From a virus, in the IMG/VR virus record IMGVR_UViG_3300031718_000003, positions 10,760 through 74,759 of that record: a DNA stretch of 64,000 nucleotides; one strand, 5' to 3'. Both the position numbers and the translations under genes were made by a program. The notes under the pieces were generated by a model. It was not told where the DNA came from and ran no database searches. It saw only the letters and a program-made list of their open reading frames with translations. This document shows, piece after piece, positions 6,953 through 61,251 of this stretch. The first letter of the stretch is position 1, and each line of letters begins with the position of its first letter.

Positions 6953-7115
6953 TCAGGTTCTCCTTATTGGAGTTAAGTCTACTTCTTTTCTTCGGGGTCC
7001 GTGGTCATCGCACTGATCGGGCGTTCGTTTGCGCCTGATCTCTCGACCAGTCCGAACGCAAACGGCGGATTGGTGAGAGAGACAGCTACCCCGAAGCCAT
7101 GATCTTTAGCTTTAT

Positions 7116-7652
7116 CTAATCCTCCAGCACAGCCAACACATGCTGCGTGGTCTCGGCATCTTCGTGGAGGATCATATACTCCTTGCCTTCGAACATCACT
7201 TCTGAGCCTGGCCTCTGGAGGTAGAGGATGCGGTCGCCGATCTTCAGCTCCATGGGCCGACGCTCGGTATACAGGTGGCCATCAGCTCCCGTGTGCAGTA
7301 GCTCGGTGTTGTTTGATCCGCAGTGTGGGCAGTTGGCTACGGCGTGACCGAAATCATTGGGGCCGCTGACGCGTCGAATTGTGCTCGTGTAAAAAGGATC
7401 TCTATGACCACTCACATCGCTACAGTGTCTACACCACAAGCCAATGGCGCGGTCTCCCGGACCCACCGCGATCACCAGGCCGGTGCGGTAATAAACTTCC
7501 TCCTGGCGCGCCCGCTCCGGAATCCAGATTGATCCGCGCATCGCCGGCGCTTCGTCTGGGAGCACGAGCACCTGGTCTTCGAGGGGTTCGAAGGTGGCGG
7601 GGTCGAAGAATTGCCCCACGTATGCCTCGGTACGCTTATATGTGAATGGCAT
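7116..7652 (-). CDS. GroES/Cpn10-like co-chaperonin with a Zn-finger-like insertion
   Basis: EPLEDQVLV, IWIP, GLVIAVGPG, LKIGDRILY, GSEVMFEGKEYMILHE..VLAVLE; CRHC and CPHC inserted after AVGPG. Confidence 0.85.
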   Translation of the reverse strand: MPFTYKRTEAYVGQFFDPATFEPLEDQVLVLPDEAPAMRGSIWIPERARQEEVYYRTGLVIAVGPGDRAIGLWCRHCSDVSGHRDPFYTSTIRRVSGPNDFGHAVANCPHCGSNNTELLHTGADGHLYTERRPMELKIGDRILYLQRPGSEVMFEGKEYMILHEDAETTQHVLAVLED

Positions 7653-8150
7653 AACTAAAATCTACTTCATGGCTTCGGGGTCGGTGGGCAGAAACAATCC
7701 GCAACCCGCCGTTTGCGCCTGGAGCGTCGAGTACCATTGGAAACCCCGCTCTGCGCTCATTGCTCCGCGGAGATATTGCTCTCGGACTTTTGGTTCGTTC
7801 TTCACGCATGCGTCCAGGAAGTCGTGAATGTGTGCAGTAAGTTCCTCAAGGGCCGGGGGTCTCGTCAGCCCAGGCGCAAACGTTGAGCGCGGGGAGCAGC
7901 GCCGGGCGGACCCCGAAGTAATCGGCATTGCGTTCATCTTGGAGTTAATTCAGCCTCGCGAGAGCTCTCTCAACACTGGTAACCACGGATCGCTGCCAGT
8001 TTTGATCGACCATTTGAAAATAAACGCGCAGCGCTTCAGCCAAGCTCATGGTTCGAACGGCGCCGATCGAGGAATAGCCACTGCCGAATAAACCGCACCA
8101 GTAAGCTTCTGGTGGTTTGCCAACAGGCAGAATGCGGAGGCTGGGTTTCA

Positions 8151-8573
8151 TCACACACTCCGCGCATACTCCAGGCATCGGCTGTCATCTTGGCGTATCC
8201 GCTGCTGCGCCGCCCAGATAAATGCGCCGTGAATCTCGCGATGCGCTTTATCCCCCCGAGGTTTTACGCTCGCGAGCAGCCTCACGTCCTCAGGTTTCAT
8301 CGCCGCCACCTGGTCGTGGGCGAGCTGAAATACGTCGGTCGGCTCCGGCTCACGAAAGCTGAAGCCTTCCATGCGCACTGGCTCGTACACCCACTTGGCG
8401 GAGCCACTAGCGGCTTCGGCTAGAACCGCCTGCGCGGTTGCGGTCGAGAACCGGCTGTCGAGCAGCATCTGGGTGTAAGTGTAGAATAGCCAGTGCGATC
8501 GCTGCCATTCCAGCTCCTGAGCGATCAGGCTGACACGGGTTCCGCGCGTGAAGGTTGGATTTTTTTGTCGCAT
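8151..8573 (-). CDS. Hypothetical protein
   Basis: 140 aa ORF in operon orientation. Confidence 0.45.
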   Translation of the reverse strand: MRQKNPTFTRGTRVSLIAQELEWQRSHWLFYTYTQMLLDSRFSTATAQAVLAEAASGSAKWVYEPVRMEGFSFREPEPTDVFQLAHDQVAAMKPEDVRLLASVKPRGDKAHREIHGAFIWAAQQRIRQDDSRCLEYARSV

Positions 8574-10290: not shown

Positions 10291-11721
10291 TCACGTCATC
10301 CAGCTCCGATCCCCGCCTGGCACATGGACAGCCGACGGCCTCGGCTGCGGCTTCGATGTCAAAGTTTTCAGACCCGTGGTGGACAGGACGTACCGGACGC
10401 AATCCATCAAATGGTCGTTTTTCTTCACGATCTTGCCCTTCTCGTCCCGATGATAGCGCGAGATCTCGCGGCGAAAGTTCTGAAGATGCTCCTGAACCTT
10501 CAACCTCCCCGATACCAGCCGCTCCCACACGATTTGAATGCCGGTCTCGACAGCGTTCTCACAGGGATGGAGCATCAGACCGGCCTTGCGGTAATGCTCC
10601 ATCAGAGAACGGCCATCCACCTGCGAGCTTTGGAGGCAGCCGGGATCGACTACGCCATGTATCCACTCGCCCCTGGCGCGGATCGCCATCGCGTGGGAAG
10701 CTGGCTCGCCGGCGCTTTGATAGTGTTCGTCGTAGAGGACCAACTGCCCGTTGCCGGGATTCTCGGCCGCCCACAAGGCCGCCGTGAGCCGCCAGCCCAC
10801 ATCGAGTGCATAGACGCGCCGCCAGGAGGCGGGAATGGGCGCGGTCTTGATCAGGAAGTCCTCTTCCGGCAGGGGATAGATGGCGCCCGCGCCGAGCGAC
10901 GGCTCGCCGAGTGTCCGCGCTTTGATCTGGTAGGCGGGAGTCGTGGCAATCAGGATGTCCTTCTCCGCCTGCTCCATGTGCGGAACGTCCTTCCAACCGG
11001 CCTGTATCCAGAATTTGTGCGCCGCGGCGCCTTCCTTCGGCTCCAGAAATCCGGTTACAACCTCACTCATGCCCTGGAGCGGCGTGAAAGTGGTGTAGAG
11101 AATCCCGCGGGTTGTGACGGTGCGAAACAGGATCTCGGTATAGATGTCCTCCGGAGGCTCTTCGTCGAGCCATGCGAAGTCCAGTGAGACTCCCTCGAAG
11201 CTCTTCCGGCCCTGCTCGTAGGTCTTCAGCCCAACGCTCGACCAGGCGCCAGAGACGTGCTTTACCCAGATCGTCTCGATCGATCCGCTGAGACCTGAGC
11301 GGCGCGGAAGCGTCTTCACGATCCGGTCCGCCGGGATCATGCCAGTGCCCTGCGCTTCGAGTGTGCCTGCGAGTTTGAACTGCACGATATTGCGAGTGCT
11401 CTCCGAGGTCGTGCCGCACGCCCAGCCCGCGGTAGGTCCACTGAAGCGCTTCCCCGTCCACCACACCGGATAATTTCCAGTTAGATGACAGGCGGTCTCG
11501 TACGCGCCCGCATCTGACTTCCCGATGCGATTCGCGGCGCAGAATAATCTTTCCTTGTACGTCGCGCCGGCGGCGAAGAATTCGAGCTGCTTCGGATAAA
11601 GCGCGCGCCGGCGCGGCCCCGTCTCCGGGAAATATCCCCGCCACTTGTTGCGCTTCTGGAAGTCCAGGGCCGCCTGAATGGTGCCCAGATCGACCATGTC
11701 CGGTAAGCTGACAACGGTCAC
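10291..11721 (-). CDS. terL: Terminase large subunit
   Basis: Walker A AANRIGKS, Walker B AWLDEEPP, coupling motif TTFTP, nuclease motifs ALDVGW and NDHLMDCVRY; probable GTG start at 11721 (ORF track extends to 11832). Confidence 0.95.
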   Translation of the reverse strand: MTVVSLPDMVDLGTIQAALDFQKRNKWRGYFPETGPRRRALYPKQLEFFAAGATYKERLFCAANRIGKSDAGAYETACHLTGNYPVWWTGKRFSGPTAGWACGTTSESTRNIVQFKLAGTLEAQGTGMIPADRIVKTLPRRSGLSGSIETIWVKHVSGAWSSVGLKTYEQGRKSFEGVSLDFAWLDEEPPEDIYTEILFRTVTTRGILYTTFTPLQGMSEVVTGFLEPKEGAAAHKFWIQAGWKDVPHMEQAEKDILIATTPAYQIKARTLGEPSLGAGAIYPLPEEDFLIKTAPIPASWRRVYALDVGWRLTAALWAAENPGNGQLVLYDEHYQSAGEPASHAMAIRARGEWIHGVVDPGCLQSSQVDGRSLMEHYRKAGLMLHPCENAVETGIQIVWERLVSGRLKVQEHLQNFRREISRYHRDEKGKIVKKNDHLMDCVRYVLSTTGLKTLTSKPQPRPSAVHVPGGDRSWMT

Positions 11722-12143
11722 TAGCCTCCCGAGTCCGCAATCGCCTCGCGAATCTGTTGCGCCGCGAGGCCGGGCCACTGCGCTTCCGGCATCCGCACGT
11801 ACGTCCATGCGTCGAGGCCGGCAATGCGCCACTGCCCGCGCGGCGTCTGGTAGAAATATTGCTCCGCGTTTGCCGAGTAGGGTCCCGTTCCATAGGGATT
11901 TTCAGCCTTGATCTGCCCGTTCCCGAACGTTTCAGCCATATACTGGGCCGTCGCCTCGGTCGCAAAATACATGGGATTCAGGCCCGTCGATTGCCCCGTC
12001 TGTGAATTGGTTACCGCCGGCACGATGAACGTAGGGACAAACGGAGGCGCAACCGGAGCCGCGCCCGGCGTGGGAGCAGGCGAGGGCGCAGGTCCGGAGA
12101 TCTCAAATGGTCCCCAGGTGGGGGGCGGCGTGGAATTACTCAC
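11721..12143 (-). CDS. Hypothetical Pro-rich protein between terS and terL
   Basis: 140 aa, AAGGA RBS upstream, stop overlaps terL start. Confidence 0.6.
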   Translation of the reverse strand: MSNSTPPPTWGPFEISGPAPSPAPTPGAAPVAPPFVPTFIVPAVTNSQTGQSTGLNPMYFATEATAQYMAETFGNGQIKAENPYGTGPYSANAEQYFYQTPRGQWRIAGLDAWTYVRMPEAQWPGLAAQQIREAIADSGG

Positions 12144-12223
12144 AATGTGTTTTCCTTTTTTGCTTCGTGGTCAGTAGACTGCGCTCTCAGCGATCCGCCG
12201 TTTGCGTTCGGACCCGTCAAGAG

Positions 12224-12408
12224 ACTCGAGGTGCAGTTTTCCCTTGCATTTCCACTGATTCCCATTTAGACTGTAAAGCGTTGATAGAGCGCAGTTTATG
12301 TGAAAATATTTCATTGAACACTTATCGCCCCCCGATAAGTGTTCCGTTCGATTTCCCAATGTTTTGGCACTTTGTCGATTTGCGCTCGGCTGGGCATAGA
12401 AAAACAGG
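12224..12408. repeat. ~185-bp near-identical copy of 30018-30202 (AT-rich, origin-like part of the replication gene)
   Basis: Direct sequence identity with a few substitutions. Confidence 0.95.
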
Positions 12409-12426: not shown

Positions 12427-12463
12427 GTTGCAATATCCAGCTCACGGAAGAAGGTAGTGAGAC
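12427..12463 (+). CRISPR. Solitary CRISPR repeat (GTTGCAATATCCAGCTCACGGAAGAAGGTAGTGAGAC)
   Basis: 36/37 identical to array repeat variant 51201-51237; abuts the terS stop codon. Confidence 0.95.
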
Positions 12464-13045
12464 TCAGCTTCTGCTTTGCGCTCTCATCAGTTTCTGCTTT
12501 GCGCCCTCAAGCTCCTCTGCTGTAAATAGCTCCGCGAGCGCCGTAACGGCTACTGGGATCGCTTGGCCGCCTGGTCCGCTCAGTTCTTTGCGATCCACCC
12601 AGTCGCCCATCTCGTGCGCCACCTGTTCCTCGTGGAGGCGCATCTCGCGCAGTATCCCGGTATCGACGAGGAACTCTTCTACGACTTGGCTCTCATCGCC
12701 CGCGCCGATCGACTTCAGTTGGCAGATAACCAGCCCGGTGCTGCCGCCTGGCGCTTTGCCGGCCAGCTTCGCGGCACGCTCACGGACGACCTGGTCCATG
12801 AGTGCGAGCCGCCGGTTCAGCCGCGCGAGGCGAACTTCCTTGACCGCAGCGCCGGACTCCTTCACGCGCTTGCGCCATTCCCCGACCCAGTGGTCCACCT
12901 CGCGGGCGAACTCCGGGGTGGCCTTCCAGCGTTGGATCTGCCGCGCGCTCACTCCGAGCCGCTTGCCGATTTCATCGTTCGTCAGGCCGCCGAGCGACAC
13001 CATGCGCGCGGCTTTGTAACGCGTTTTATCCCAGGCCCAGTCCAC
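12464..13045 (-). CDS. terS: Terminase small subunit (N-terminal HTH)
   Basis: LTNDEIGKRLGVSARQIQRWK HTH and C-terminal ELSGPGGQAI motif; upstream of terL. Confidence 0.8.
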   Translation of the reverse strand: MDWAWDKTRYKAARMVSLGGLTNDEIGKRLGVSARQIQRWKATPEFAREVDHWVGEWRKRVKESGAAVKEVRLARLNRRLALMDQVVRERAAKLAGKAPGGSTGLVICQLKSIGAGDESQVVEEFLVDTGILREMRLHEEQVAHEMGDWVDRKELSGPGGQAIPVAVTALAELFTAEELEGAKQKLMRAQSRS

Positions 13046-13301: not shown

Positions 13302-13338
13302 GTTGCAATATCCAGCTCACGGAAGAAGGTAGTGAGAC
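13302..13338 (+). CRISPR. Second solitary CRISPR repeat, identical to 12427-12463
   Basis: Exact 37-nt copy. Confidence 0.95.
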
Positions 13339-16107: not shown

Positions 16108-16306
16108 GGCAGCGCTTCGCCCCTTTCATTGCAAGCACGATCCGGTCATTTGGATATATCGGCAGGGAGGGGTACGTTGTCCCAAAATCCAAATGCTTAT
16201 GGCTTCGGGGTGAGTCGTTGTCGCACTGAAGCCGTCCGCCGTTTGCGCCTGATCACTCGAGCGCGCAAAGAACCAGGGCGCGGAGGGATAGCCAAAGCGG
16301 TAAGCG

Positions 16307-17151: not shown

Positions 17152-17796
17152 ATGCCATCCAAAACCAAAAACATTGACCAAAACAGCCCTATTTCAGCCC
17201 CAGTCGAACAGAATTGTCAAACTGTACGCCTCAGACGCCGAAGTTCGCCGGAACCGCCGAAACACCTCTCTCCTACGCAGCTCGAGGATCTGTTCCGCGT
17301 GATCTACTCGAAACGCGACGAGGCCATCTTTCGCATCGTCTATTGCAAAGCCCTGCGCGCGAGCGAAGTCGGCCGCCTGGAACTCAGTGACTGGGATGAA
17401 CGCGAGAAGATGCTGAGCGTACATCGACTAAAAGGATCTCGCTCGGCGGCCTTCGCGATGCACGACAAGGAGCTGCGCGCGCTGCGCGCCTGGCTAAAGG
17501 TCCGCGGCCGAGCGCCGGGCCCGCTGTTTCCCAGCCGCAACCATCGCCCAATCTCGCGCATTCGCATCTGGGAACTGATGCGGCAGTACTGCAAAGAAGC
17601 TGGCATCCCCATGCGTCTCGCACATCCGCACGCGCTCAAGCACTCCCGCGGCTCACACTTACTCGAGGAGACGGGCAAGATCCACGTGGTGCAGGACGCG
17701 TTAGGACACAAAAGTATCGCGTCTACGATGATCTACGCGCAAGTTTCCAACCGCGATCGGACGGAGGCCATAGCGCTCAATCGCAATAAATACTGA
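17152..17796 (+). CDS. Small tyrosine recombinase, FimB/FimE-like
   Basis: 214 aa catalytic domain only: LRASE (R), RLKG (K), HPHALKH (HxxK variant), LGHKSIASTMIY (H,Y). Confidence 0.9.
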   Translation: MPSKTKNIDQNSPISAPVEQNCQTVRLRRRSSPEPPKHLSPTQLEDLFRVIYSKRDEAIFRIVYCKALRASEVGRLELSDWDEREKMLSVHRLKGSRSAAFAMHDKELRALRAWLKVRGRAPGPLFPSRNHRPISRIRIWELMRQYCKEAGIPMRLAHPHALKHSRGSHLLEETGKIHVVQDALGHKSIASTMIYAQVSNRDRTEAIALNRNKY

Positions 17797-18722: not shown

Positions 18723-19178
18723 CTACGCCGCTTTTGCTTTCGCCTTCGGCACAAACTCCACAGACCGCTCGCCGATCCGTTCCTTCGCAATGAATTTCGC
18801 GTGCTCGTGTTTCGGCAGCAGCTTGCGCAACTCGCCCAGTGGTATGCTCACCCACTTTATCGCTTCCTCTTTGCCGAGCCTCGCGATTACCTTCGCTATG
18901 TCGATGATGCTGGATTTGTTGCCGCGCTCGCTAACCACAGCCATGTACTTGTTGCCCGAAACGCTTACGGCTTCGGCCGCACGCTGTTTTGGAAACCACG
19001 TTGGGATCGAGAGCCGGATGAATTCCAAGCGTGCGCGACGGGTTGCGGTGGCTGCATCATGGGCTATGTCTTCCTTATTGAGCGCTGCTTTTAGTGCTCC
19101 TCCTTCATCGATCAGCCGTATACGTTCGGGTGGTAATTTCATAACGCTTCTTTCTTCGGGGTCGGCCCGGCGCTGCAC
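18723..19178 (-). CDS. Hypothetical protein
   Basis: Probable start at MKLPPER after element 19154-19202. Confidence 0.55.
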   Translation of the reverse strand: MQRRADPEERSVMKLPPERIRLIDEGGALKAALNKEDIAHDAATATRRARLEFIRLSIPTWFPKQRAAEAVSVSGNKYMAVVSERGNKSSIIDIAKVIARLGKEEAIKWVSIPLGELRKLLPKHEHAKFIAKERIGERSVEFVPKAKAKAA

Positions 19179-19512
19179 TCAGGCTTTCCGCCGTTTGCGC
19201 CTGATCGGTCGTGCAACTTTAATCGGGCCTTCCGCCGGAGCGTACAAGCGCGCTACGGTCCTGTACAGCGCTGCCACCTCCCTGGAGCCCAGCAGAAAAC
19301 TGCGCCGATACGGCCCTGGACCGCCCGTGCCGTCGATTTTCACTGTGATCACCGCACCGCCGCGTGGAATATAGTGTCGAAGATATGGCCGCTCGAGGGT
19401 GAAGGTCATAGTCTGGGCGTCTTCAACCGCGAACAGCCTCAGGGAGACGCCTTTGGTGCGAGCCATATCTTCGCAATCCAACGTAACTCTCTTTTTCTTC
19501 TGACGCGCCATT

Positions 19513-20187
19513 TTACGCTGCCTTTCTGCCCCGCAGCTCCATGTGCCTCCGCATGTGATCGAGCGCACGGCGGTGCAGCCGGCTCGCATCGGAGCGCTTC
19601 AGCCCCAACTCCTCGCCGGCGGCCCTGATGCTTGTTTCCAGTCCGAAGTAGTGCCTATCGATCATGGCCAGCTCGTCGGCGCAGAGGCTTAGCCGTGCCT
19701 GCCGGATGTCTCGCCGCTGCTCGTTACGCTCGGTGAGATGGTGCGCCAGGCCGCCACCCGCCCGGTCGGCCGCCGGCATCTCCACCAGCTCGCCGTCCCG
19801 CAGCCGGTGATCTCCCCCGCAACGCACGGAATCCATGATTGCGTCGTGGATTCGCAGCTTCGCGAAGACCCAAAACGGAACTTTACACCGGGGCGCCTGA
19901 TACCGTTCCGCGGCATGAATCAGTCCGATGCACCCGGCGCCCTTCAGATCATCCAACTCGAACCGGCGCGGGAGTTTTGCCTGCATGTCCTTGGCAACGA
20001 TGTCTACCAGATGTAGATTGAGGAGAACGCGGTCATCGCGGACACTTAGAGACGCTAGGTCAGGGAAATGGACGAGTTTGGCGTGAGATTTGATGCTTCT
20101 ATTATCGGCAGGATGGGAGGATTTGTCCCAATCACGCGGAAACTGCTTATGACTTCGGGGTGAGTAGCTGTCGCTGGCCATTGGCAC
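19513..20187 (-). CDS. FliA/WhiG-like sigma factor (regions 2 and 4); true start probably downstream of 20187
   Basis: NLHLVDIVAK...ELDDLKGAGCIGLIHAAERY...FAKLRIHDAIMDSVR plus C-terminal HTH. Confidence 0.85.
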   Translation of the reverse strand: MPMASDSYSPRSHKQFPRDWDKSSHPADNRSIKSHAKLVHFPDLASLSVRDDRVLLNLHLVDIVAKDMQAKLPRRFELDDLKGAGCIGLIHAAERYQAPRCKVPFWVFAKLRIHDAIMDSVRCGGDHRLRDGELVEMPAADRAGGGLAHHLTERNEQRRDIRQARLSLCADELAMIDRHYFGLETSIRAAGEELGLKRSDASRLHRRALDHMRRHMELRGRKAA

Positions 20188-20267
20188 GCGGGAGGTCCCT
20201 GCTTATCCGGGGACAAGGCTGAGTATCCTGCTGGCCTGTGGTCAAATCCGCCGTTTGCGCCTGATCC

Positions 20268-20630
20268 TCAGTGCGCCAACATCGAGCGCCACCGTTCCGC
20301 CGTCAAGGTAGGGTTTCCGGATGGTCCGGATACGGTCTCGCCAGGAAACTCGCGGCCATTACTTAGATTGGCGACTATCCTTGCGTGGCCAGCCAGAGCC
20401 TCGGACTCGCTCGCATACGCCTCGTGGTACAGGCCCTTACACGAACCCTCGTGAAACACCATTGTTTCGAAAGGCCACGGCTCCTCGGCAGCATAATCGG
20501 ACTCCCAAAACGGACACAGGGCAGGCCGATTGTCTCCGCCGCCGCCTGAGTAGGTTCGAATGGTGCTCACGTCAAACCGTTCGCCTTGTGGATTAGCTAC
20601 AGAACCAGAAAATCTGACCTTTTCACTCAT
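20268..20630 (-). CDS. Hypothetical phage protein
   Basis: VSTI...FETMVF...YASESEALAGHARIV pattern. Confidence 0.6.
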   Translation of the reverse strand: MSEKVRFSGSVANPQGERFDVSTIRTYSGGGGDNRPALCPFWESDYAAEEPWPFETMVFHEGSCKGLYHEAYASESEALAGHARIVANLSNGREFPGETVSGPSGNPTLTAERWRSMLAH

Positions 20631-21374
20631 AGTTGGCCTTCCCCGTCAAACAGCGGCAGTCTTCGTTTTTCGCAGTGCCCACGGTGGTGGCGCTCGTAGT
20701 GCCGGCCGGAGAAATAGCGCGCGCAATCCGGGCACAGGATGAGCCGGATCGAGCGCGAACGCGACTTCAGCCGCTCGGGCTGGCCGCGCCACACATGGAA
20801 GCGAATCGGTAGTGGATGCACCTAACGTGTAATATATATGGGAATGGGGAGTTTTGCTAGGGTCTTGCCGGAATCGCGTCAGTCTGGCTTAGCACTCGTC
20901 GGTGGCCGCGCCGCCGTCGCGATCCCCCTGCGCGAAGAGTTACGCGCTCTGTTATGGGACTCGCACCTTCAGCGCCAGCAGCAGTTGCAACGCATAGAAA
21001 ACGCCGAGGAGCGCCAGCTTTTTCTCATCGCCCTCACTCTCGATCTACAATTCGAACTCGCCAACAACATGCTCGTCTCCAGAACCCAGACCCCCTTAAT
21101 TAACCCCGGTCCGGGATCAGCACCAGAACAAGGCAAGTAAGATCCTTACGATCTGCGTCTCTAATTTCGGCAATTATATACTTGCCTCAAACACGGCACC
21201 GGGCGTACAATGAATCCGGACGAGGAGCCAGTTTCGCACGAGGCAGAAAATCATGGTAACCGGTCCTGCCGCCTTCGATAATTTCAAGCGGCTAATGCAG
21301 GCGTTGCTGAGGGCACCGAAGGAAAAGAGCGCAGGCGCTAAGCCGCCCACACGGCGAAGAGCGCGTCGCAAAGC

Positions 21375-21809
21375 GTGAACGTCTTTCGGCGGCTCGTCGT
21401 TATGATGCGCTGGAATCTTCTCTGGCTGCGGCTCCCTGTGGTTTTCTTCTTGCTCTTGGCCGCTTACGATGGATTGGAAGCGTACAAGTATGGCCGCGTT
21501 TTAATCGAGCATTGGACATGGGGCCTGCTACTTTCTCCCGCTGCTGACTTGTGGATTATGCTCAATTTCGTCGCCGTTCTATTGCCCGTACAAGCGTCGC
21601 TTGTGATTCCAACATTCTTTGATCCCAAAGCGGAAGAATTATACGCGCACCGTACGCGCAACACGCTGACGTGGGCATTCGGTCTTCCGGTCGCGGTGTT
21701 TGTTCTGTGGGTGCTCATGTGGGGATCTTTCCCGCTGGAGAATAACGCAGATGGCACCTACATGCGGATGCTCCCGTTTATTCCGTGGCCATCGGCTCCG
21801 TTCTTCTAA
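21375..21809 (+). CDS. Multi-pass membrane protein (IS cargo)
   Basis: Three hydrophobic segments. Confidence 0.6.
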   Translation: MNVFRRLVVMMRWNLLWLRLPVVFFLLLAAYDGLEAYKYGRVLIEHWTWGLLLSPAADLWIMLNFVAVLLPVQASLVIPTFFDPKAEELYAHRTRNTLTWAFGLPVAVFVLWVLMWGSFPLENNADGTYMRMLPFIPWPSAPFF

Positions 21810-21821
21810 TGGGCGAGCTTC

Positions 21822-22754
21822 TTAGCTTGGCTTGCGAAATCCGACCTTCATGTCTCGGTCGAATTTCTGCTCCATAATAACGTCAAGGTTAAACGGCTCT
21901 CCGGGTTTGTGGGTGGCGACAATTCTCAATAGATTCGCTTTATCGGCATACTGTATAAGAAACACGGCCCCCGCATCATCCAAGATCTCGAACTGCTTTC
22001 GCAAATATCCTTTTCGTTGCCCGAGTTCCAGGTTGAGCGCTCGACGAATCTCGAAGACAACTGCGTCCGCCGCTTGTAGGGGGTCGCATTCTTTCTCGTT
22101 CATTTTGGAAAAACTTGCCATGTATTTCGCGGCGTCTGGATTGGTGCGTGTCAAATTATCGTAAGCATCGCTCGCAAGCGCGCTGTGTTCTTCGTCTTGG
22201 TCGCAGACGTAGGACACCCTATCGGGCTTTTCTAGCCCCTTCATGGCCCTGGCACACTGAATCATCGCCAAATCGTATGCTAGCCGGTAGGGGTTGTCGC
22301 CTAGAATAGCGCGGGCATTTGCATCCTGAATGACATCGTAAAAATCTTCCTGCACGATACCTATGCCAGCAAGTGTTCGATAATTCCCGTATGAGCGCGG
22401 ATCGACGATCACCTTCAGGAATTCGTGACTGATCGAGTCAAGCCGTTCACGTTCGGCAGGCGTGATGTTCTTTTCGTCCGCAACAAACTTTGAAAATTCC
22501 CCGGTGCCCCGTTCGCATTGGGATGCCTTGAAGTACTTAATGCCGATGTCGGGCCTCTTTCGCAGGGCCTTCCACGCGCGTTCCAGCTCAAAGATTGCAG
22601 TGCCTCGCGCGAGTAAACCGCCCACAGCAAAAATACCCGACTGTCTCATGTCGAAACTTTCGTCCATGTACGAGTCGATCACAGCGTAACAGCTTTCTTT
22701 GAATCTGCTTATGCGAATAGCTTTCGCCAATTCCTCGAACGGCCACTCCTGCAT
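21822..22754 (-). CDS. DUF3800-like RNase H-fold protein (IS cargo)
   Basis: SYMDES near the N-terminus, VCD, and PLQAADAVV motif. Confidence 0.75.
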   Translation of the reverse strand: MQEWPFEELAKAIRISRFKESCYAVIDSYMDESFDMRQSGIFAVGGLLARGTAIFELERAWKALRKRPDIGIKYFKASQCERGTGEFSKFVADEKNITPAERERLDSISHEFLKVIVDPRSYGNYRTLAGIGIVQEDFYDVIQDANARAILGDNPYRLAYDLAMIQCARAMKGLEKPDRVSYVCDQDEEHSALASDAYDNLTRTNPDAAKYMASFSKMNEKECDPLQAADAVVFEIRRALNLELGQRKGYLRKQFEILDDAGAVFLIQYADKANLLRIVATHKPGEPFNLDVIMEQKFDRDMKVGFRKPS

Positions 22755-22914
22755 CCCACTCCCTTCCGGGAATTTGCTACACTTCCCTGCAGGAAGGGCT
22801 TTGGATGCAACGGTGGCACGCTGCGGCCAGCTAAGCCCGCCAAAAAAAGCACAATAAGACGGCCTGTAAACTCAGGCCGTTCTGCGTTTCGGTCTCCGTC
22901 CTCGCCGGATGGCT

Positions 22915-23853
22915 TTAGTTCGCGGTGGCGCCCACCTTGCCAGTCAATTCCGCATACGTGAGCCGCTTGCCAGCGATCCGCGACAGCACGGTCGTGAATC
23001 GCTCCGTGTCGCTAGCTTCATGGCGATTGTTGTAGCGAAAAGATTGTTCGTCGATGTAGCGGGCTAGGTGATAAGGCTCGACGCTAATGTACGTTCCGTG
23101 CAGCCCACGCTTTAAGAGCGACCAGAAATTTTCCATCGTGTTGGTATGGACGTTTCCGTTGGCGTACTCAATGGCATGGTTGATGACAGCGTGTTGATAA
23201 TCAGTCTCTAGCCCTTCATACGATTTTAGTTCGTCGCTGAAAATCGCCGATCCAGCTTCCACATGCTCGCGAACCTGCTTTTGCAATTGCTTCTTGCGGC
23301 GGTTGTCCACCACGAAAGCCCGAACATCGCCGCCGCGCTCAACCATACCGAGGACAATGGTCTTGTCCTTACCGCCGGTTCCGGTGATGACGCGCTCTCG
23401 TTTCTCCTTGTGCATGTTGCGCGCTTTGCCGCCGATGAAACTCTCGTCCACCTCGACCTCGCCGCCAAGCTTCGTAAACCCGCCGCTGCGCATGACGCGG
23501 CGAATTCGGTGAAGCATGAACCATGCGGTTTTCTGGGTCACGTTCAAATCTCTGGCAACCTCACAGGAGCTAACGCCGTTCTTGCAATTGGCGATCAGCC
23601 ACGCGGCGGCAGCCCACTTATCCAAGCCAATCGGGGAGTCCTCGAAAATCGTGCCGACCTTAACCGAGAACTGCTTCTGGCAGGCTCGGCATCTCCACAG
23701 ATCGCGGGTGGAGATAACGGCAATGTTTTTGGAATCGCAGCGCGGGCAGATCGGGCCGTCCGGCCAGCGCCACTTGGCGATGAAGTCCAGCGCGTTCTTC
23801 GGATCGGAAAAGAATTGGATTGCTTCGAGAAGGCTTCCAGGTGCGCTGTCCAT
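22915..23853 (-). CDS. IS1595-family transposase
   Basis: N-terminal Zn ribbon CPRC/CRAC, VEVDESFIGG, FSDE, VHTNTMENFWSLLKRGLHGTY, FRYN. Confidence 0.95.
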   Translation of the reverse strand: MDSAPGSLLEAIQFFSDPKNALDFIAKWRWPDGPICPRCDSKNIAVISTRDLWRCRACQKQFSVKVGTIFEDSPIGLDKWAAAAWLIANCKNGVSSCEVARDLNVTQKTAWFMLHRIRRVMRSGGFTKLGGEVEVDESFIGGKARNMHKEKRERVITGTGGKDKTIVLGMVERGGDVRAFVVDNRRKKQLQKQVREHVEAGSAIFSDELKSYEGLETDYQHAVINHAIEYANGNVHTNTMENFWSLLKRGLHGTYISVEPYHLARYIDEQSFRYNNRHEASDTERFTTVLSRIAGKRLTYAELTGKVGATAN

Positions 23854-24505
23854 GTATCAACTATGCGCTTTTTTTGTGTTTGAGTCAAGTATATAGTTGC
23901 CCTAATTTCTTGTTGTCAAGGGATAATTGCCATGATCATTAAAAAGCAGGGGGGGGGGAACTGCGGGCCGCAGATGGCGCATCCCCTGCGGCCCTTCGCG
24001 TTGATAGCCCTCCGGTATCGATCTTTCGACGAGCAGCTCAGCAAACCGGATGCGCCCGGTACACGCTGGCCTCTAGGTCTGCACCAATCGACTTCGGCAG
24101 ACTCACACCGCCCGGAACTGCGGGCCTCTCTCTCAGTGGTATGTCGAGATTACGAAGACGCTCCGGCTCCGGCTCCGGCCGCCATGGTTTTCGGCTGTGC
24201 TCCGATCGGGGCGCTCGTCCGCGCGATCTGGTAGTAGTCGAAGGTGATGCGGTTCCCACCGATGCTGAGCGCGATATTGCGCAGCTCGTTCAGTTCGTTC
24301 TCGTCGACCAGGCATTGGCCATGATCGTTCAAGCGCGTCACGCTCATGTGAAACCCTGGCGGAGTTCCCTGCGAAGCCGCGGTATTCTGTTGCTTTGCTT
24401 TCCATCCTGTTGGACGTGGCATTGATTCTCCTTACGAATAAACTATATAAAGCACTATATAACAAGTTGAAGCATCATGGCTTCGGGGTCGGTCAGGCTC
24501 TGCCG

Positions 24506-25037: not shown

Positions 25038-25258
25038 ACGGCGGGTTGCGGATTGCTTCCGCCCACCGACCCCGAAGAAAAACGCATTTGCTTCATAGTA
25101 GTTTCCTCAGTAATCTCAACCCAATGACCCCTATTGAATACCCACCAGGGATGAAACAACATCTGAATCTGGTAACTCAAAAGCCGTTTCGGACGGAAAC
25201 TGAATTGGTGGATCAACTTTCCCCGTTTTGTCCAGAGGTTCACTACCAGCACCTAGAT

Positions 25259-45710: not shown

Positions 45711-45793
45711 TCCGCTCTATCAGCGGGCGTTCGTTTGCGCCTGATCCCTCGACCACAGGAGCGCAACAGTTAAAATGAGGGAGATTAGTAAAA

Positions 45794-47530
45794 ATGGCCG
45801 TGGAAACGAAAACTTATATCGCTTATACTTACGGCTGCCCCCAGCCCAATCACCAGGTATTTAATTATGCCTTGGCCGAGATGCGCCGCCGCAACGATCT
45901 CTGGAACAAACTAGTCGAAATAGATCGCCGATTTCGCCTAGCTTCCTGGAATATCTATGCGGATGTCCCCGAACAGAAAATCGCCGATGAGTTGGCGGGC
46001 GTGATCAGGGCGTGGCGCGAAGAACTCAAGGGCCGCCGGCAAAAGGCGCGCCGCCGCGTGGATGCCACGGATCTCGTGGAAAAGATCAAAACTGCGAAGA
46101 TGGAATTACGAGTCGCCTCTAAAACCGCTAGAATTGCCCGCCGTGCGGCCATCGAACGAAACCGGGCGGCGCTGAAGACCCTGGACGAATTACGCCGGTC
46201 CGAAGTCAATAAGGCGTGTCTTGCGAGCAATCTCTACTGGTGTAACTGGGATGAAGTGCTCGCAAAATACGAAGTAGCGCGAGTTCGCGCCATGAAGGCC
46301 GGGGTACTGCTACGTTTTCATGCATGGAGCGGCGTTGGAAAACTCACTGTGCGGTTCCAAAAAGGGCTCGCTTCCGATCTGGTGTTTGGTGGGGATACGA
46401 GATTGCAAATCGATCCCGTCAACAGTGACGCCTGGAATTCCCCGGCGCGCAGTGTCCGCGGAAAAAGTATGTATACAAAAATTCGTATACGCATGGGATC
46501 ACACAATCGCAAACCTGTATGGTTCGAAGCGCCCATGGCGATGCACCGCCCGTTGCCGGAGAGAAGCGTGATCCGCACCGCCGCGATCGCCTCCGAGCAG
46601 ATCGGAGGCGTTTTGCGCTGGCACGTCATCCTAACGCTTGAACTGCCATCTGCGCGTCAGGCGAGGATCGGTCCGGCGGTAGGTGTAGATATCGGATGGC
46701 GCTTACTGCCTGGAAGGCTGCGGGTCGCATACTGGGTCGATGAATATGGCGGCAAAGGCGAAATCGCGCTCTCCGACTCCATTGTCTCGCAATTCGCAAA
46801 AGTACGGGATCTTGATGCAATCTTGGGAAATCATTTCGAACTCGCAAAGGTAAAACTTGGTGCGTGGCGCGCGGGGTATTTCGAACCGCTGCCGGAATGG
46901 CTCAATCTCACCCGTATGGATCAGTGGAGAGATCAGCGCCGGTTCTATGAGCTTTGGACACTCTGGAAGGATTCCCGATTTGCTGGCGACACTTATGGAT
47001 TCGATACCGTATCCGAGTTTGCCGAGCGCTACGCTCATTTGCGGAACTGGCGCGAGAACTTACAGGATCAGGTCATCGCCCGCAGGAAGGACACGTACCG
47101 GAAAGCCGTATGCGATCTGCTCCGGAACCACGGGGACGTGTTTCTTGAGAAATTCGATCTTCGCAACATCGCTGAAACACCGGACCCGGAGACGAGTCCC
47201 ACAGTAGTAGTAATGGATTCGGCTCGCCGCCGCGTGATTGCCGCGCCTGCGAGTTTGCGTGAGATGCTGGTCCATAAGGGCCAGTGGATGGAGGTTCCAG
47301 CACCGGGGACCACGCAGGAATGCGCCTGGTGCGGTTATGCCGCTGCCTGGGATGCGGCCCCAAGCATACTGCATCGTTGTGGAGGATGCGGAAAGCTCTG
47401 GGATCAGGATGAGAATGCAGCAGTCAACATCCTGCGGCGTGGTTTAGCGCAGATTGGGAGGGATTGGAAGCCGGAATTCGATCCGCGAAAAGCGGACGGG
47501 ATGGAAGTGGCCGAAACCGTTGCGGGTTAA
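45794..47530 (+). CDS. cas12m: Type V CRISPR effector, Cas12m (V-M / C2c4 / V-U1)-like
   Basis: 578 aa, Arg-rich helical REC region, RuvC motifs VGVDIGWR / FLEKFDL / WDQDENAA, Zn finger CAWC..CGGC; array begins 14 nt downstream with Cas12m-like repeat layout (CCCAGCT...GGGCGAAGG...AGAC). Confidence 0.82.
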   Translation: MAVETKTYIAYTYGCPQPNHQVFNYALAEMRRRNDLWNKLVEIDRRFRLASWNIYADVPEQKIADELAGVIRAWREELKGRRQKARRRVDATDLVEKIKTAKMELRVASKTARIARRAAIERNRAALKTLDELRRSEVNKACLASNLYWCNWDEVLAKYEVARVRAMKAGVLLRFHAWSGVGKLTVRFQKGLASDLVFGGDTRLQIDPVNSDAWNSPARSVRGKSMYTKIRIRMGSHNRKPVWFEAPMAMHRPLPERSVIRTAAIASEQIGGVLRWHVILTLELPSARQARIGPAVGVDIGWRLLPGRLRVAYWVDEYGGKGEIALSDSIVSQFAKVRDLDAILGNHFELAKVKLGAWRAGYFEPLPEWLNLTRMDQWRDQRRFYELWTLWKDSRFAGDTYGFDTVSEFAERYAHLRNWRENLQDQVIARRKDTYRKAVCDLLRNHGDVFLEKFDLRNIAETPDPETSPTVVVMDSARRRVIAAPASLREMLVHKGQWMEVPAPGTTQECAWCGYAAAWDAAPSILHRCGGCGKLWDQDENAAVNILRRGLAQIGRDWKPEFDPRKADGMEVAETVAG

Positions 47531-48697: not shown

Positions 48698-49546
48698 CTA
48701 GGCGACACGGCTCAGTTCTCTCGTCTCGGACAACGCGACGATCTCTTCGAACGACCACACATGATCCGCGATCCCGGCTGCCATTGCTGGCGTAACTCGT
48801 AGCGTCTGATGGATGCGCGCGAAGTTGTAATACATGTAGTGGAGGGCCACGGCTGCCTCGTGGTTCTCGATCTTCTTTGAAAAGCCGTTCGTCAACCGAG
48901 TGAAGCGGCGCATGGACATCCGCATTGTGAGATTCTGGCGTTCCACATAGCTCGTGCTGATATGCCTTGGTTCGGGATCGCCGAGTCGGATGATCTTCTC
49001 GGCGCCGGTGCAAACCGCAGGGCTGTACCGCTTTTGCGGCTCGGGTTCGTTGCCGAAGTATTTCACGAGCTGCGCGTAATCCACTTCGTCGGCGAAAGCA
49101 TCAATCACGGCGTTGAGGTAAACTTTGTGGCCGTCCGTGGTAAGTTGGACACGATGGGCGAGTTTGCGTTCCAGAGCGGCGATGAATTCCGTGGCGCTGC
49201 CAGCTCCCCTATCGCCCACGAGCCAGCATGGAACAAGCTTGGTATCCGCGTCGATTGCGACCCAGACCCAAGCGTCGCCTACGACGCGCTCTTCGGCCAT
49301 CTTCGTGGTGACGTTCTTCTGCTTGCAGCCGATATAGCTCCAGATCTCGTCACATTGAATACGTCGGCATTTCAGGTTGCGGAAGACGCGGTCCTGATAG
49401 CGGTAGCAGGCGATCCCGACCTCAACGAGGAGACGCGTCACCGGGCGCTTCTCGTGGCCCGTCATGCGGCAGATGGAACGGATGGAATTTCCTTCGACGA
49501 GTGCGGCAATGATTCGGGCGCGTTCTCCGATGCTCAGCCTGTTCAT
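48698..49546 (-). CDS. IS1-family transposase
   Basis: LVEGNSIRSICR HTH, IQCDEIWSY, QLTTDG, STSYVERQNLTMR...RRFTRLTNGFSKK. Confidence 0.93.
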   Translation of the reverse strand: MNRLSIGERARIIAALVEGNSIRSICRMTGHEKRPVTRLLVEVGIACYRYQDRVFRNLKCRRIQCDEIWSYIGCKQKNVTTKMAEERVVGDAWVWVAIDADTKLVPCWLVGDRGAGSATEFIAALERKLAHRVQLTTDGHKVYLNAVIDAFADEVDYAQLVKYFGNEPEPQKRYSPAVCTGAEKIIRLGDPEPRHISTSYVERQNLTMRMSMRRFTRLTNGFSKKIENHEAAVALHYMYYNFARIHQTLRVTPAMAAGIADHVWSFEEIVALSETRELSRVA

Positions 49547-50727: not shown

Positions 50728-52129
50728 GACAGCTTCAAGTATGGCAGGTTACGGGCCAACGTCAAGCCTGTGGAAATTCAAAAGACCCCACTACCGGCGA
50801 AGGAAGTGAGACTAGGAAGCTGTATCCGGCTCCCCGCGTTCACATTCGTTGCAATACCCAGCTCACGGGCGAAGGAAGTGAGACCGATCAGTGCAAGGCG
50901 TACTCGCCGAATCACAAGGGGTTGCAATACCCAGCTCACGGGCGAAGGGAGTGAGACACGAAATCGGCAAGCGGCTCGGAGTGAGCGCGCGGCAGTTGCA
51001 ATACCCAGCTCACGGGCAAAGGGAGTGAGACCTAAACGGCGTTCCAGTTCCGGCGGAATGCACTCCGTTGCAATACCCAGCTCACGGGCAAAGGGAGTGA
51101 GACGTGTCAAGGCGTGGCTGAAAGCAGTCAAGCTGCTCGCCAGTTGCAATACCCAGCTCACGGGCGAAGGAAGTGAGACAGCATCACGACCGTAAGGCCG
51201 GTTGCAATATCCAGCTCACGGAAGAAGGAAGTGAGACGCTCAATCTCATGTCGCTGTGACGCCCGGATAACTGTTGCAATACCCAGCTCACGGGCGAAGG
51301 GAGTGAGACAAGATTTAGAAACAGGTTTAACTGGAAGCAGGAAGGGTTGCAATACCCAGCTCACGGGCGAAGGAAGTGAGACAATATGGTGCTGCTTCGC
51401 TTTTCAGAAGTTGCAATATCCAGCTCACGGGAGAAGGGAGTGAGACGAGACGAAAGAATCGCAGCAACAGCGGGGGTGGGGGTATTGCAATACCCAGCTC
51501 ACGGGCGAAGGAAGTGAGACTATTATGCCCCTCGGCATGTGTGAAAAGACCAACCGTAGTTGCAATACCCAGCTCACGGGCGAAGGGAGTGAGACCGTTA
51601 AAAGCATAGGCTAGGGGAAGACGGATTTTCGTTGCAATACCCAGCTCACGGGCGAAGGGAGTGAGACCGGAGCATATCCCGCTGAAGGTTCTTTGGAACG
51701 GAGTGTTGCAATACCCAGCTCACGGGAGAAGGGAGTGAGACTCGGCAGATTTCCAGCGGGACCAAAGCCCGCAGAGCGGTTGCAATACCCAGCTCACGGG
51801 CGAAGGGAGTGAGACACATCTTGAGGGTTTCACGACAGAAGAGATGCCAACAGGTTGCAATACCCAGCTCACGGGCGAAGGAAGTGAGACAAACAAGTGC
51901 CCAGGTCAACAAAAATGTTTGGGGAGTTGCAATACCCAGCTCACGGGAGAAGGAAGTGAGACGTGGTCAACCGTTCCGAACGCAAACGGCGGACCGCTGA
52001 AGGCAGAGCCGGGCTGACCCAGGAAGAATTATGTGTGCGTTGCCAATTGGGGTCAAATGGGTCTTCATCCGGCCAGCGATCATACAAGAAAATGTCATCC
52101 TGTAAATTCACGGCATAGCTTGGCATAGT

Positions 52130-59900: not shown

Positions 59901-60683
59901 GAACAGGCCGATCACGTCGGCAGCCAAAGCGTCCGAGATCGCGCCCGTGGCCGTGGTGTTCTTCACGATCCCGGTACCGAGCGCTGGCCAGTTCTGATTT
60001 GCCGTGCCGAGTGTGAGGGTCGCGGTATTCGGTACGCCCGTGCCGCCGTTGGCCGGCGGGTTGACGCCTGTGATGCTCGCTGAGGTGCCGGTCGAGTTCT
60101 GGTTCAGAATCGGAAAATCGGAGGCGGCGGCGATCGATGGGGTGCCGGCCGTATTCTTCAAGATTCCGGTAGCGAGCGAGCTGAGCGCCGTCCCGTTTAA
60201 TTGATTCGCGTTGATGATGCCGGTGCCGGAGAAGGTAAATGATCCGCCAGATCCCACGGCGAGCGCCGCGCCATTCGTGCCTGCGAGGATATTGGCCCAT
60301 GCCGTGGTTGCCGCGCCGGAGCAACTGCCGAATGCGATGGGGCCGCCATTGGTCGACGTCACACAGTAGGTTCCGGTGCCGCTCGTGCCGGTGGTCGCGA
60401 GCCCGGCGCCATTCCAGTAGGCCGCCCCGTTGAGTGATGGATTGGGAACGGTTGCGCCACCGATGGCCGTCCAGGTGCCCGGACTCTGCCTGTTGGCGGA
60501 GGCGGTGCAGGCGTAGATGTTCTGTCCTGGTGCTGCATCGGTGATATAGGCGAGCTGTGGGGTCTGGCAGGCTTGGGCGAATACCTGGGCTGAGGGGCCA
60601 ATCTGGGAGAAGATCAGACTGCTTCCGGTTTGCTGAGCCAATAGAGATAGAGGGAGTAATAAGAATGCGACAAGGATTTTCAT
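56904..60683 (-). CDS. Tail fiber-like mosaic protein
   Basis: 1259 aa, A/G/S/T-rich, internal repeats (DFPILNQNxTGT twice, TGIxKxT three times). Confidence 0.75.
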   Translation of the reverse strand: MKILVAFLLLPLSLLAQQTGSSLIFSQIGPSAQVFAQACQTPQLAYITDAAPGQNIYACTASANRQSPGTWTAIGGATVPNPSLNGAAYWNGAGLATTGTSGTGTYCVTSTNGGPIAFGSCSGAATTAWANILAGTNGAALAVGSGGSFTFSGTGIINANQLNGTALSSLATGILKNTAGTPSIAAASDFPILNQNSTGTSASITGVNPPANGGTGVPNTATLTLGTANQNWPALGTGIVKNTTATGAISDALAADVIGLFANCSGTLYLGADGSCHAPPSAALADPGATGIVKRTTLDTTVIAVAADFPILNQNTTGTAAVGVNGSSVPSPNFNAATPAAGSSNLNVTFHSSGSSISAELPYAFGLAVASGALAVNTAVIPSLVTLQAGAWNTLTSINGTTNYAACPSPVLTALTDQQQFFLRVDTANTSTQPTLNVCALGAFNVMTPNGLQPSAGRIQPGPHGYWIQWDNAGSMFRLVDYTPTTYVDAQSGASPTVPNTDRGAVFQTTNNTSQTNVTVPQVGAAGFGDHFSFIHCNTGSVPATDTPTTSTVNGNVVLSLLGAASGGNPECAIWWSDAGNWWSAVIPPTDSNGLLSGTAMPALSGAVANAGGSTVTTLQPGVVVNSNLASALKSGTAGTQIASAIAPFTANAVPKFNATGDVVASGVSIDASNNMAGASSETIGAGSLAGFTFWGAQSSLPTAFFAANPSGFLGWGVGTGAIVTSAAYLLPTTPPSGTGNGWAMTFPLTPTGNTYQATWFQIPAGLASVAYPTSVTAGHYLWSPLGGSIASNANLSDVGNQLAYAGSSGIAATNGPVQAGNPAAALSAIVGGGGFFFGETSATLSGFPVATVDGCYGNSTTHIPVCSWNNATAAVWPLLNPSSTFTANHVLSINASTNLIDDAGYLKTAVVLNNQANTYSTGLQDFSNTAVDVRLPNHSADPGACSTGQIEFNSTSAGFKGCTATNTWGSIGGGGLSGLTTGYLIKAASATTAANSLDDEGITTANVHTIGDTAGLAVPNGPVSAGSPPSCATPGTGGGPVCLTEGTAGTPSTGQDNLQAISAQHAVEVNNNNTGAMPVSRVAAVNVTPVTVSANVSTAQNLMAVSLNANLLNVAGRTFKVWLAGTYSNVVTSAPTVTLAVKLCTVSGCATGSSIVPLSVTSTATSATAVTNLAANLTGYITTQTAGATSAYESHGLLGIDLGTTNLTADSLFADTNTATVSAIDSTGALFLQTTVTFSAASASNSFTARQLIVEVLN

Positions 60684-60783
60684 AAAAACTTTTATGGCTT
60701 CGGGGTCAGACAGGAGCTGCCCTGGGCCGCCAACGTTTGCGCCTATGGCTGGGTGCGCTACGATGTACAGGGAGGGCGGACCG

Positions 60784-61251
60784 ATGAAATCAGAGCTGGA
60801 AGTTCTGCGTGATGCGCGAGAATTACTGGCACAGTGCTACGTGAAGTGGACCGTAGACGATGACGCCGGAGGACACTGTGCGATGGGATGCGTCAACCTG
60901 GCTCGCGTTGGCTACGCCAGCGTGGCACCGGTCAAGGGCGATAACGCCCTCGACCTGGTTAACCGGGCCTGTGAGCGATTACATCCCGAGTTGCAGGGAA
61001 AAAGAGCGCCACGGATGGAATACTACGATGGCATATTCATGGATTGTGGCCACGAGGACTTTTTCGATACTCACCCCATGGTCTTCGTGAACAACCAACT
61101 GGGTAAAGAAGCGATCCTCGCCTGCTTCGACGACGCCATCCTGCACGAAGAAATGCGTGTGATGCTGGAGAACGTTCAGGCGCAAACGGCGGAATCTCCA
61201 GGGCAGATTCTGTCTGACCCCGAAGAAAAGAGCGTCGCCCTACTTGGCTAA
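60784..61251 (+). CDS. Hypothetical protein (moron) bracketed by inverted bipartite elements
   Basis: GGAGG RBS; antisense to the tail operon; elements at 60698-60744 (+) and 61178-61225 (-). Confidence 0.65.
   Translation: MKSELEVLRDARELLAQCYVKWTVDDDAGGHCAMGCVNLARVGYASVAPVKGDNALDLVNRACERLHPELQGKRAPRMEYYDGIFMDCGHEDFFDTHPMVFVNNQLGKEAILACFDDAILHEEMRVMLENVQAQTAESPGQILSDPEEKSVALLG

Follow-up and report, generated by a model that had tools for sequence, protein, structure and literature searches.

We propose that a polar repeat of about 46 bp, scattered through a tailed-phage genome assembled from a soil metagenome, may form the ends of exchangeable accessory-gene cassettes in uncultured soil phages, a reading to which we assign a probability of roughly 0.4. 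The DNA analyzed (the window) is 64 kb long, spans bases 10760–74759 of a single 74.8-kb virus record, and makes up most of that contig (G000), which is rated 91% complete and whose nearest cultured phages share only ~36% identity in the portal protein. A first-pass annotation of the window had described inverted repeat pairs (A-B...B'-A') enclosing either one gene (two or three in one case) or almost nothing, and had suggested that the inward-facing pair is the unit, comparable to transposon ends or alternating pdif sites, with the shortest pairs being empty or deleted slots. The observation is confirmed and statistically solid: all six pairs, with their twelve arms, lie where they had been placed and hold the contents that had been reported. 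The interpretation is partly supported, in that inward-facing pairs delimit slots that are empty or differently filled in relatives.

The repeat unit is polar, consisting of an A box (CTTCGGGGTC), ~25 poorly conserved nucleotides (nt), and a B box (CCGCCGTTTGCGCCTG, with variants AACG- or GTTCG-TTTGCGCC), for a total length of 44–47 nt. The window contains 26 matches to the pattern CTTCGGGGT-N20-40-GTTTGCG, compared to 0.00 in dinucleotide shuffles, and a profile search of the 74.8-kb contig recovered 43 copies on both strands; in three long variants the A and B boxes are 80–100 nt apart. Copies sit at ~40% of G000 gene boundaries, and about two thirds of them are solitary. Most lie 12–60 nt upstream of a start codon, and in one class GGAGG and ATG directly follow the B box, while a start codon within the B box itself (TTG CGC CTG) showed no frame enrichment. 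Subtype AACG is found upstream of late structural genes and subtype CCGCC at module ends and in the early region.

The repeat was found only in phage-like contigs, in a metagenome scan and among IMG/VR relatives. A strict metagenome scan yielded only 21 loci, all in phage-like context, so that in these metagenomes the repeat is no high-copy repeat of the host. An IMG/VR contig representing a second lineage, G002, carries 20 copies in 37.6 kb, as also seen in its fragment G003, and an unrelated 75-kb phage (G001, identical to G004 and L186) carries a single copy at 60541–60586; the latter phage also has 19 copies of a palindrome, CACTCCTATATAGGAGTG. A search of 50,697 deposited phage genomes gave no match to the repeat, and no Rfam family matches it. 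Loose-pattern matches at no fewer than 120 loci of a genome collection were rejected as chance, scoring 15–18 bits against 40–59 for true copies, a result that leaves some room for copies in host genomes.

The inward-facing pairs of the window, with the open reading frames (ORFs) that they enclose, are the following.

6990–7035 (+) and 7055–7096 (−): tight inward-facing pair with 19 bp between box ends, lying between minus-strand genes 6470–6952 and 7116–7652
7673–7719 (+) and 7873–7918 (−): inward-facing pair enclosing ~150 bp; ORF 7662–7937 (−), which has no Pfam or PHROG family, crosses both arms
24738–24783 (+) and 25031–25077 (−): inward-facing pair enclosing ORF 24723–25016 (−; 97 amino acids, aa), which has a GAGGG ribosome-binding site and ATG right after the right-arm B box and ends inside the left arm
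34798–34844 (+) and 34863–34908 (−): tight inward-facing pair with 18 bp between box ends
35806–35852 (+) and 36483–36530 (−): inward-facing pair with two overlapping minus-strand ORFs, 35792–36070 and 36054–36425
45696–45741 (+) and 51979–52026 (−): wide inward-facing pair (gap 6214) enclosing a Cas12m-like gene, two CRISPR (clustered regularly interspaced short palindromic repeats) arrays, an IS1-like DDE gene, and small ORFs
60698–60743 (+) and 61179–61225 (−): inward-facing pair with ORF 60745–61251 (+; 168 aa), antisense to its neighbours, between the start of a 1259-aa tail gene and the endolysin stop

We analyzed the pairing of copies pooled from 13 non-redundant metagenome loci, the G000 contig, and G002 as second lineage. 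Neighbouring copies that face inward (A-B..B'-A', 25 pairs) lie far closer together than those that face outward (22 pairs) or stand in tandem (25 pairs), as judged by gap length (Mann–Whitney, P = 4 × 10−5 for each comparison). All seven gaps of ≤150 bp were inward-facing, with none outward or tandem, and at ≤400 bp the counts were 15 inward, 2 outward, and 3 tandem. The pairing is not that of random placement, and the inward-facing pair behaves as a unit bounded by terminal inverted repeats with the A box outermost, as the first-pass annotation had supposed. The first 12 copies of the contig, which lie in the structural region, alternate strictly in orientation, but alternation is in only borderline excess when all copies of the contig are taken (23/38, shuffle P = 0.05). 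Within the G000-like set, 12 of 15 close pairs joined a CCGCC arm to an AACG/GTTCG arm, compared to 48% expected (P = 0.012), a pairing that resembles distinct left and right ends.

Slot contents could be compared along two lines of descent. G000 and G002 have almost no DNA and only five proteins in common. The syntenic relatives of G000 are metagenome loci L172, L174, L175, L180, L182, L184, L187, and L190 (50–76% protein identity), and G002 has a close relative in L179 (75–95% DNA identity). In both lines, the same slot holds different cargo in different relatives, so the invariance of slot content that the first-pass annotation had named as its refutation does not hold. An inward-facing pair with one antisense ORF lies upstream of the tail gene in each of G000 (60698/61225), L174, and L182, yet the three ORFs are unrelated and the element-encoded tail alone aligns. 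The junction at 6990/7096, which encloses almost nothing in the window, corresponds in L172 to ~490 bp carrying one arm and two ORFs, so that this slot, empty in G000, is filled in L172. Between G002 and L179, sequences are ~95% identical through a left arm to the last B-box base and then unrelated over 227 versus 396 bp, the cargo in L179 being an ASCH-like ORF; the two sequences align again from the right-arm B' box (blastn, 83%) and are near-identical in the flank immediately outside A'.

Cargo is also gained or lost together with one arm. A 192-bp unit, consisting of a 43-aa hydrophobic/membrane ORF and a B'A' arm, distinguishes G002 from L179, where it is missing, with TCAA at both edges of the indel, 16 nt outside the A box. 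Another G002 pair encloses a permuted transfer-messenger RNA (tmRNA) gene (2654–2966 in L011, tag AKDEPFALPMAA); in L179 this slot holds a shortened version of the tmRNA, and the right arm is absent. That arms travel with cargo in these two cases, and that a solitary copy occurs in the unrelated phage G001, support the cassette-end reading. L187 matches G000 at 98% identity across a 90-aa gene together with its arm; the match ends 10 nt outside A', next to a truncated IS1595-type transposase gene.

The window also contains copies outside these pairs, most of them solitary.

1488–1533 (+): solitary, upstream of the scaffold gene start
4280–4325 (+): solitary, upstream of the portal gene start
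4990–5035 (+): solitary, between divergent genes 4630–4965 (−) and 5048–5467 (+)
6088–6133 (+): solitary, upstream of gene 5739–6047 (−)
12163–12208 (+): solitary, with a degenerate A box (CTTCGTGG), upstream of gene 11721–12143/the terL operon
16203–16249 (+): solitary
19154–19201 (+): solitary, upstream of gene 18723–19142 (−)
20138–20276 (+): long variant, boxes ~99 nt apart
24481–24527 (+): tandem copy, 257 bp from the 24738 copy, with small ORF 24506–24721 (−) between them
25270–25372 (+): second long variant, boxes ~80 nt apart
27453–27497 (−): copy 92% identical to arm 34798
27725–27771 (+): solitary
28291–28336 (+): solitary
30801–30847 (+): solitary
34536–34582 (+): tandem copy, 262 bp from the 34798 copy
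37079–37125 (+): solitary, overlapped by the 3' end of ORF 37065–37511 (−)
38950–38996 (+): in frame inside the Rad52-like gene 38723–39739 (−)
43074–43120 (−): copy 35 nt upstream of plus-strand gene 43155–43859
62074–62212 (−): long variant, inverted copy of 20138–20276
63804–63845 (−): short copy at the window's end

Two paralogous pairs of copies behave as discrete units at new sites. The long variant at 20138–20276 and its inverted twin at 62074–62212 are 94% identical from the exact first A-box base to ~13 nt beyond the B box and have unrelated flanks, and copies 7673 and 25077 show the same behavior. Where orthologous copies could be compared, only the A flank was homologous in nine cases, both flanks in two, and only the B flank in two. 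At 1488, 4280, and 6088, the A-side genes are conserved in L184 and the B-side DNA is not, with the 6088 copy itself having an ortholog in L184 whose B side has diverged. The element at 4990 together with ~700 bp of B-side DNA, including ORF 5048–5467 (which has PHROG support), is an insertion relative to L184; the position of 19154 is occupied by a tight pair in L175; and the B-side gene of the 43074 copy has a homolog in L177 in a different A-side context. The small ORFs lying between tandem copies (24506–24721 and 34590–34784) are unrelated to each other. The element at 38950–38996 separates the annealing domain of the Rad52-like protein from a 75-aa C-terminal part, and this gene may be a fusion made at the element.

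In the cassette-end reading, the A box would be the outer end, abutting conserved core genes, and the B box the inner end, abutting variable DNA, so that facing units (A-B..B'-A') would delimit a slot between two core modules. Such a slot might be empty (14–20 bp), contain one or two small ORFs, or accommodate a large module such as the Cas12m gene with its CRISPR arrays, and a single unit with B-side cargo would be a one-armed form. Cargo would move by recombination at or beside the conserved boxes, possibly through double crossovers between co-infecting phages, aided by the phage's Rad52-like annealing protein, or possibly through a trans-acting enzyme encoded outside this phage. Given the inverted arrangement, recombination between the two arms in one genome would be expected to invert the enclosed segment, not delete it. 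Assembled contigs of two DNA sequencing runs, mapped on the phage, revealed no real rearrangement, the joints being other repeat copies or a 185-nt duplicate. A stronger form of this proposal, about which we are doubtful, is that the phages possess a dedicated gene-cassette system, in which landing slots between core modules would be marked by the 46-bp polar end-piece, and accessory genes (including the Cas12m-CRISPR unit and the tmRNA gene) would enter, be swapped, and be lost there by end-piece recombination.

Several observations weigh against units being cassette ends. No direct repeats indicative of target-site duplication flank the 24 pairs inspected, similarity breakpoints fall 0–20 nt outside the boxes at no single fixed base, and the two arms of a pair are no more alike than random arms, their middles being different. 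No transposase with matching ends was found in G000 or G002 among the Tn3-family, Y1, and IS1595 types checked, the first two being absent from both, although this covers phage genomes only and the host may supply one in trans. The IS1595 transposase of G000 was rejected as the enzyme, its element ending in unrelated 32-bp inverted repeats of its own. The position of most copies just upstream of a start codon is also unfavorable. A large share of the copies stand alone and have variable DNA next to their B side but not their A side, a point against the first-pass interpretation. At orthologous positions the boxes are perfect while spacers have drifted and flanking proteins have fallen to 57–68% identity, which suggests that each copy does something for the phage. 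Mosaic breakpoints lie at gene boundaries in all phages, and since ~40% of the boundaries here bear the element, coincidence of breakpoints with elements is by itself not significant. The large recombinase-gene swap described below has no element at its edges.

The preservation of the boxes across deep divergence, with drift confined to the spacer, is what would be expected if the units were instead cis-acting expression or boundary signals (promoters, activator sites, roadblocks, or insulators) bound by a host or phage factor. On this account, each unit would signal where one gene module starts and the preceding one ends, an inward pair would be an end marker beside the next start marker, accessory ORFs ("morons") would gather there as the sole harmless place, and the exchange seen between relatives would be ordinary phage mosaicism. 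The nearly fixed unit length, the location of A' boxes 12–60 nt upstream of the start codons of core genes (a ribosome-binding site lying between the two), the class in which GGAGG and ATG directly follow the B box, and the partition of subtypes AACG and CCGCC between late structural genes and module ends or early region all agree with a regulatory role, as do the scarcity in the genome of sigma-70-like promoters (3 versus 5.3 expected) and of intrinsic terminators (12 versus 21.9 expected). Repeated intergenic motifs are known to be regulatory in other viruses, among them stoperators (PMC3029335) and the repeats of halovirus HF2 (PMC8707807). However, the unit contains no promoter-like hexamer pair, whereas a good promoter (TTGCAT-N17-TAGACT), seemingly of host type, occurs elsewhere; units precede gene starts in both orientations, some arms (61225, 7096, 34908) lie between two gene ends, and single units have no fold. 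Moreover, arms appear and disappear together with cargo, paralogous copies are sharp-edged, and one copy stands alone in the unrelated G001, whose 19-copy repeat is a different one. No DNA-binding regulator is recognizable among the five proteins common to both lineages, and the ESM Atlas gave no lead on two of these five. We regard a regulatory function as the main rival, with the odds against it.

Site-specific recombination is a less plausible explanation: the units would be sites for a tyrosine recombinase, either that of the phage or host Xer, acting on segments that are inverted, excised, or inserted, as at attC, alternating pdif, or shufflon sites. The window encodes a small tyrosine recombinase at 17152–17796 (+; 214 aa, catalytic domain only, Xer/FimB-like), nearest to XerA/XerC/XerD and to the FimB/FimE invertases, a family that includes DNA invertases, with scores below all family cut-offs. 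It is the only recombinase and the best-conserved protein common to G000 and G002 (59% identity), two otherwise unrelated element-bearing lineages, and a 76%-identical copy adjoins elements in L175. The alternation of orientation, borderline over the whole contig, is also as in pdif arrays, tight pairs fold like attC or CTX-phage attP hairpins, and one orthologous copy differs by a 5-nt block in mid-spacer. Nevertheless, the link between recombinase and element is weak, because L179, with the same elements as G002, carries at the position of the G002 recombinase (L011 4095–4748), in its own bases 2727–4025, a small serine recombinase (Resolvase, E = 1 × 10−39) and an endonuclease VII, and because, among 35 viral loci with homologs 37–59% identical, the element occurs only in the already known G002; the other 34 (37–49%) lack it and have repeats unrelated to it. 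The second catalytic arginine (HxxR) is a lysine, nearly invariant throughout the clade; the unit has no dyad of binding arms around a 6–8 bp core, B-box-to-B-box spacers being 14–20+ bp, and neither an RYYYAAC/GTTRRRY nor a dif-like sequence; units taken singly are unfolded; and insertion of a circle would leave direct flanking sites, not inverted ones. The recombinase is a weak candidate enzyme, and its gene looks like a swappable resolvase/invertase function with a site of its own; we consider it unlikely that the units are its sites or those of host Xer. Still less probable is a role in RNA, in which transcribed pairs would form a long intergenic hairpin or a cargo-enclosing stem that stops transcription, is cut by RNase III, or stabilizes the message. 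The tight pairs do fold at −46 to −63 kcal/mol (z −3 to −7), but an inverted repeat confers such stability by itself, the pairs are not followed by a U tract, arm middles do not co-vary, and the solitary majority of copies is unstructured (RNAalifold gave an open chain for 50 copies, with a mean z of −0.2, and the variable part had a z of +0.16 over 91 unique copies). A hairpin or terminator formed by the single unit was ruled out, as there is no stable or conserved fold. Translation of the unit from B' to A', giving many small proteins a common C-terminal tail (xQAQTA-x8-(S/T)DPE(A/E)K), would account for the six of six examined ORFs inside pairs or beside an arm that read through the arm in the tail frame, and for the copy in frame inside the Rad52-like gene. 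This explanation is largely refuted and we reject it as highly improbable, for no frame is kept open: in roughly one copy in three, a TGA interrupts the frame at a single fixed position, the 44–47 nt length classes shift the frame between boxes, long upstream ORFs enter the unit in all three frames (16, 11, and 5 cases), and many copies lie well downstream of the preceding stop codon.

Compared with known systems, the likeness to transposon ends and pdif sites suggested by the first-pass annotation holds for behavior and not for membership, with no target-site duplications, no dif-like core, and no Tn3-family or Y1 transposase. Non-autonomous transposon derivatives include MITEs (miniature inverted-repeat transposable elements), mobile insertion cassettes (MICs), and the Tn3-derived TIMEs and TIME-COMPs (PMC4133298). 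Like MITEs, MICs, and TIMEs, the pairs described here place inverted end-pieces around nothing, one passenger gene, or a larger segment, with bipartite ends comprising a conserved outer and inner part and with no transposase inside the unit. Tn3-family ends start with GGGGTC and end with ACGYTAAG, and one-ended events in this family can take along adjacent DNA of variable length; the Tn3-family ends loosely resemble the GGGGTC..AACGTTTG of our unit. Unlike in Tn3 elements and TIMEs, there are no 5-bp duplications, the inverted repeat extends past GGGG to include CTTC/GAAG, the phages have no Tn3-family transposase, arms are not homogenized, boundaries are not base-exact, and the repeat occurs in phage genomes only, at nearly every second gene boundary.

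The pdif modules of Acinetobacter plasmids are flanked by Xer sites of 28 bp, made of two 11-bp arms and a 6-bp core. They share with our pairs polar sites, inverted flanks, and modules of one or a few genes that vary among related replicons; the alternation of pdif sites has a counterpart here that is strict over the first 12 copies and borderline over the whole contig. In our pairs there is no 6-bp core or dif-like sequence, and the boxes are ~25 nt apart and are not inverted copies of each other. REPINs are inverted doublets of REP (repetitive extragenic palindromic) sequences, which are palindromic, are moved by RAYT (REP-associated tyrosine) transposases, and number hundreds of copies per host chromosome. 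The inverted doublet as a unit of ~110 bp, its hairpin, and its intergenic location are REPIN-like, whereas the singlet here is not palindromic, no Y1/RAYT gene accompanies it, and in the metagenomes that were scanned it is no high-copy repeat of the host. Integron gene cassettes with attC sites have also been reported in phages (PMC9892861), and they resemble the present slots in their small, often promoterless ORFs with 3' ends entering the conserved site, in having empty and filled positions, and in the nearby tyrosine recombinase gene of opposite orientation. Unlike attC, which is a single folding imperfect palindrome in one direction per array, our units are unfolded and occur in both orientations; their ends, CTTCGGGGTC and CGTTTGCGCC, do not match attC core motifs (GTTTGCG does not fit GTTRRRY). 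The recombinase, unlike IntI, lacks the IntI-specific insertion and the N-terminal domain and scored 58 bits, where the integron-integrase model has its cut-off at 265 bits. "Boundary sequences" of phage modules are short and conserved, lie at junctions, and have been proposed to serve homologous exchange; in our case a single family occupies ~40% of boundaries. The stoperators of Cluster A mycobacteriophages number 24–34 asymmetric intergenic sites per genome, oriented with transcription (PMC3029335), and are 13 bp long, in one orientation, with a known repressor, whereas our unit is 46 bp, bipartite, paired, and found in both orientations among co-directional genes, with no repressor identified among the proteins common to G000 and G002.

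The genes of G000 are those of a tailed phage, with a scaffold protein, a helix-turn-helix small terminase, and tail proteins encoded in addition to those listed here; a scan for tRNA genes found none in the window.

1996–4221: P22-like portal gene
10291–11832: large terminase (terL)
38723–39739 (−): Rad52-like annealing protein gene
45794–47530: Cas12m-like gene
61240–61755: GH108 endolysin

Two CRISPR arrays accompany the Cas12m-like gene, with an IS1/IS240-like DDE gene (48698–49546) between them, and the window has in addition a TnpB gene (33154–34272) with OrfB_IS605 and Cas12f1-like TNB domains. One spacer of the phage's own array (50958–50994) matches its own small-terminase gene (12939–12973) over 35/37 contiguous bases; no other spacer matched any sequence in the comparison, and none matched the two-box repeat. 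Two solitary CRISPR repeats, at 12427–12463 and 13302–13338, lie on either side of the small-terminase gene, each preceded by a common sequence that includes TTTAGACTGTAAAGCG, and the copies of this sequence upstream of the repeat at 12427 and at 30018–30202 also have the full promoter-like TTGCAT-N17-TAGACT. The latter region is part of a 185-nt direct duplicate (12224–12408 and 30018–30202, 97% identical) containing a strong terminator-like hairpin (12316–12344), of which the first copy begins 3 nt past the B side of element 12163 and the second lies within ORF 29470–30675. A complete-looking IS1595-family element (21163–23907) is bounded by 32-bp inverted repeats that are 88% matched (21163–21194 and 23876–23907) and encloses a DUF3800 gene (21822–22754) and a transposase (22915–23853, with Zn-ribbon and DDE_Tnp_IS1595 domains). 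Read depth over the transposase core was 2–3 times that of the phage in the source run, indicating relatives elsewhere in the sample. Gene 6470–6952, which adjoins the empty slot at 6990/7096, contains three tandem 21-nt repeats (6848–6928).

Phage genomes are mosaic, and the way in which modules pass between them has long been a question. Under the modular theory of phage evolution a conserved "linker" between modules was predicted, which to our knowledge has not been found in known phages; if a dedicated cassette system does operate here, the repeat would be such a linker. In the phage analyzed here, one polar sequence family occupies ~40% of gene boundaries, separating core genes from variable DNA, with genes in the slots that differ between relatives. 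Should the end-pieces drive exchange, the question of module exchange would become directly testable, the uptake of defense and counter-defense cargo would be explained, and the slots would offer ready-made insertion sites for engineering. Should they be regulatory instead, they would constitute a new type of bipartite phage signal, used ~45 times per genome.

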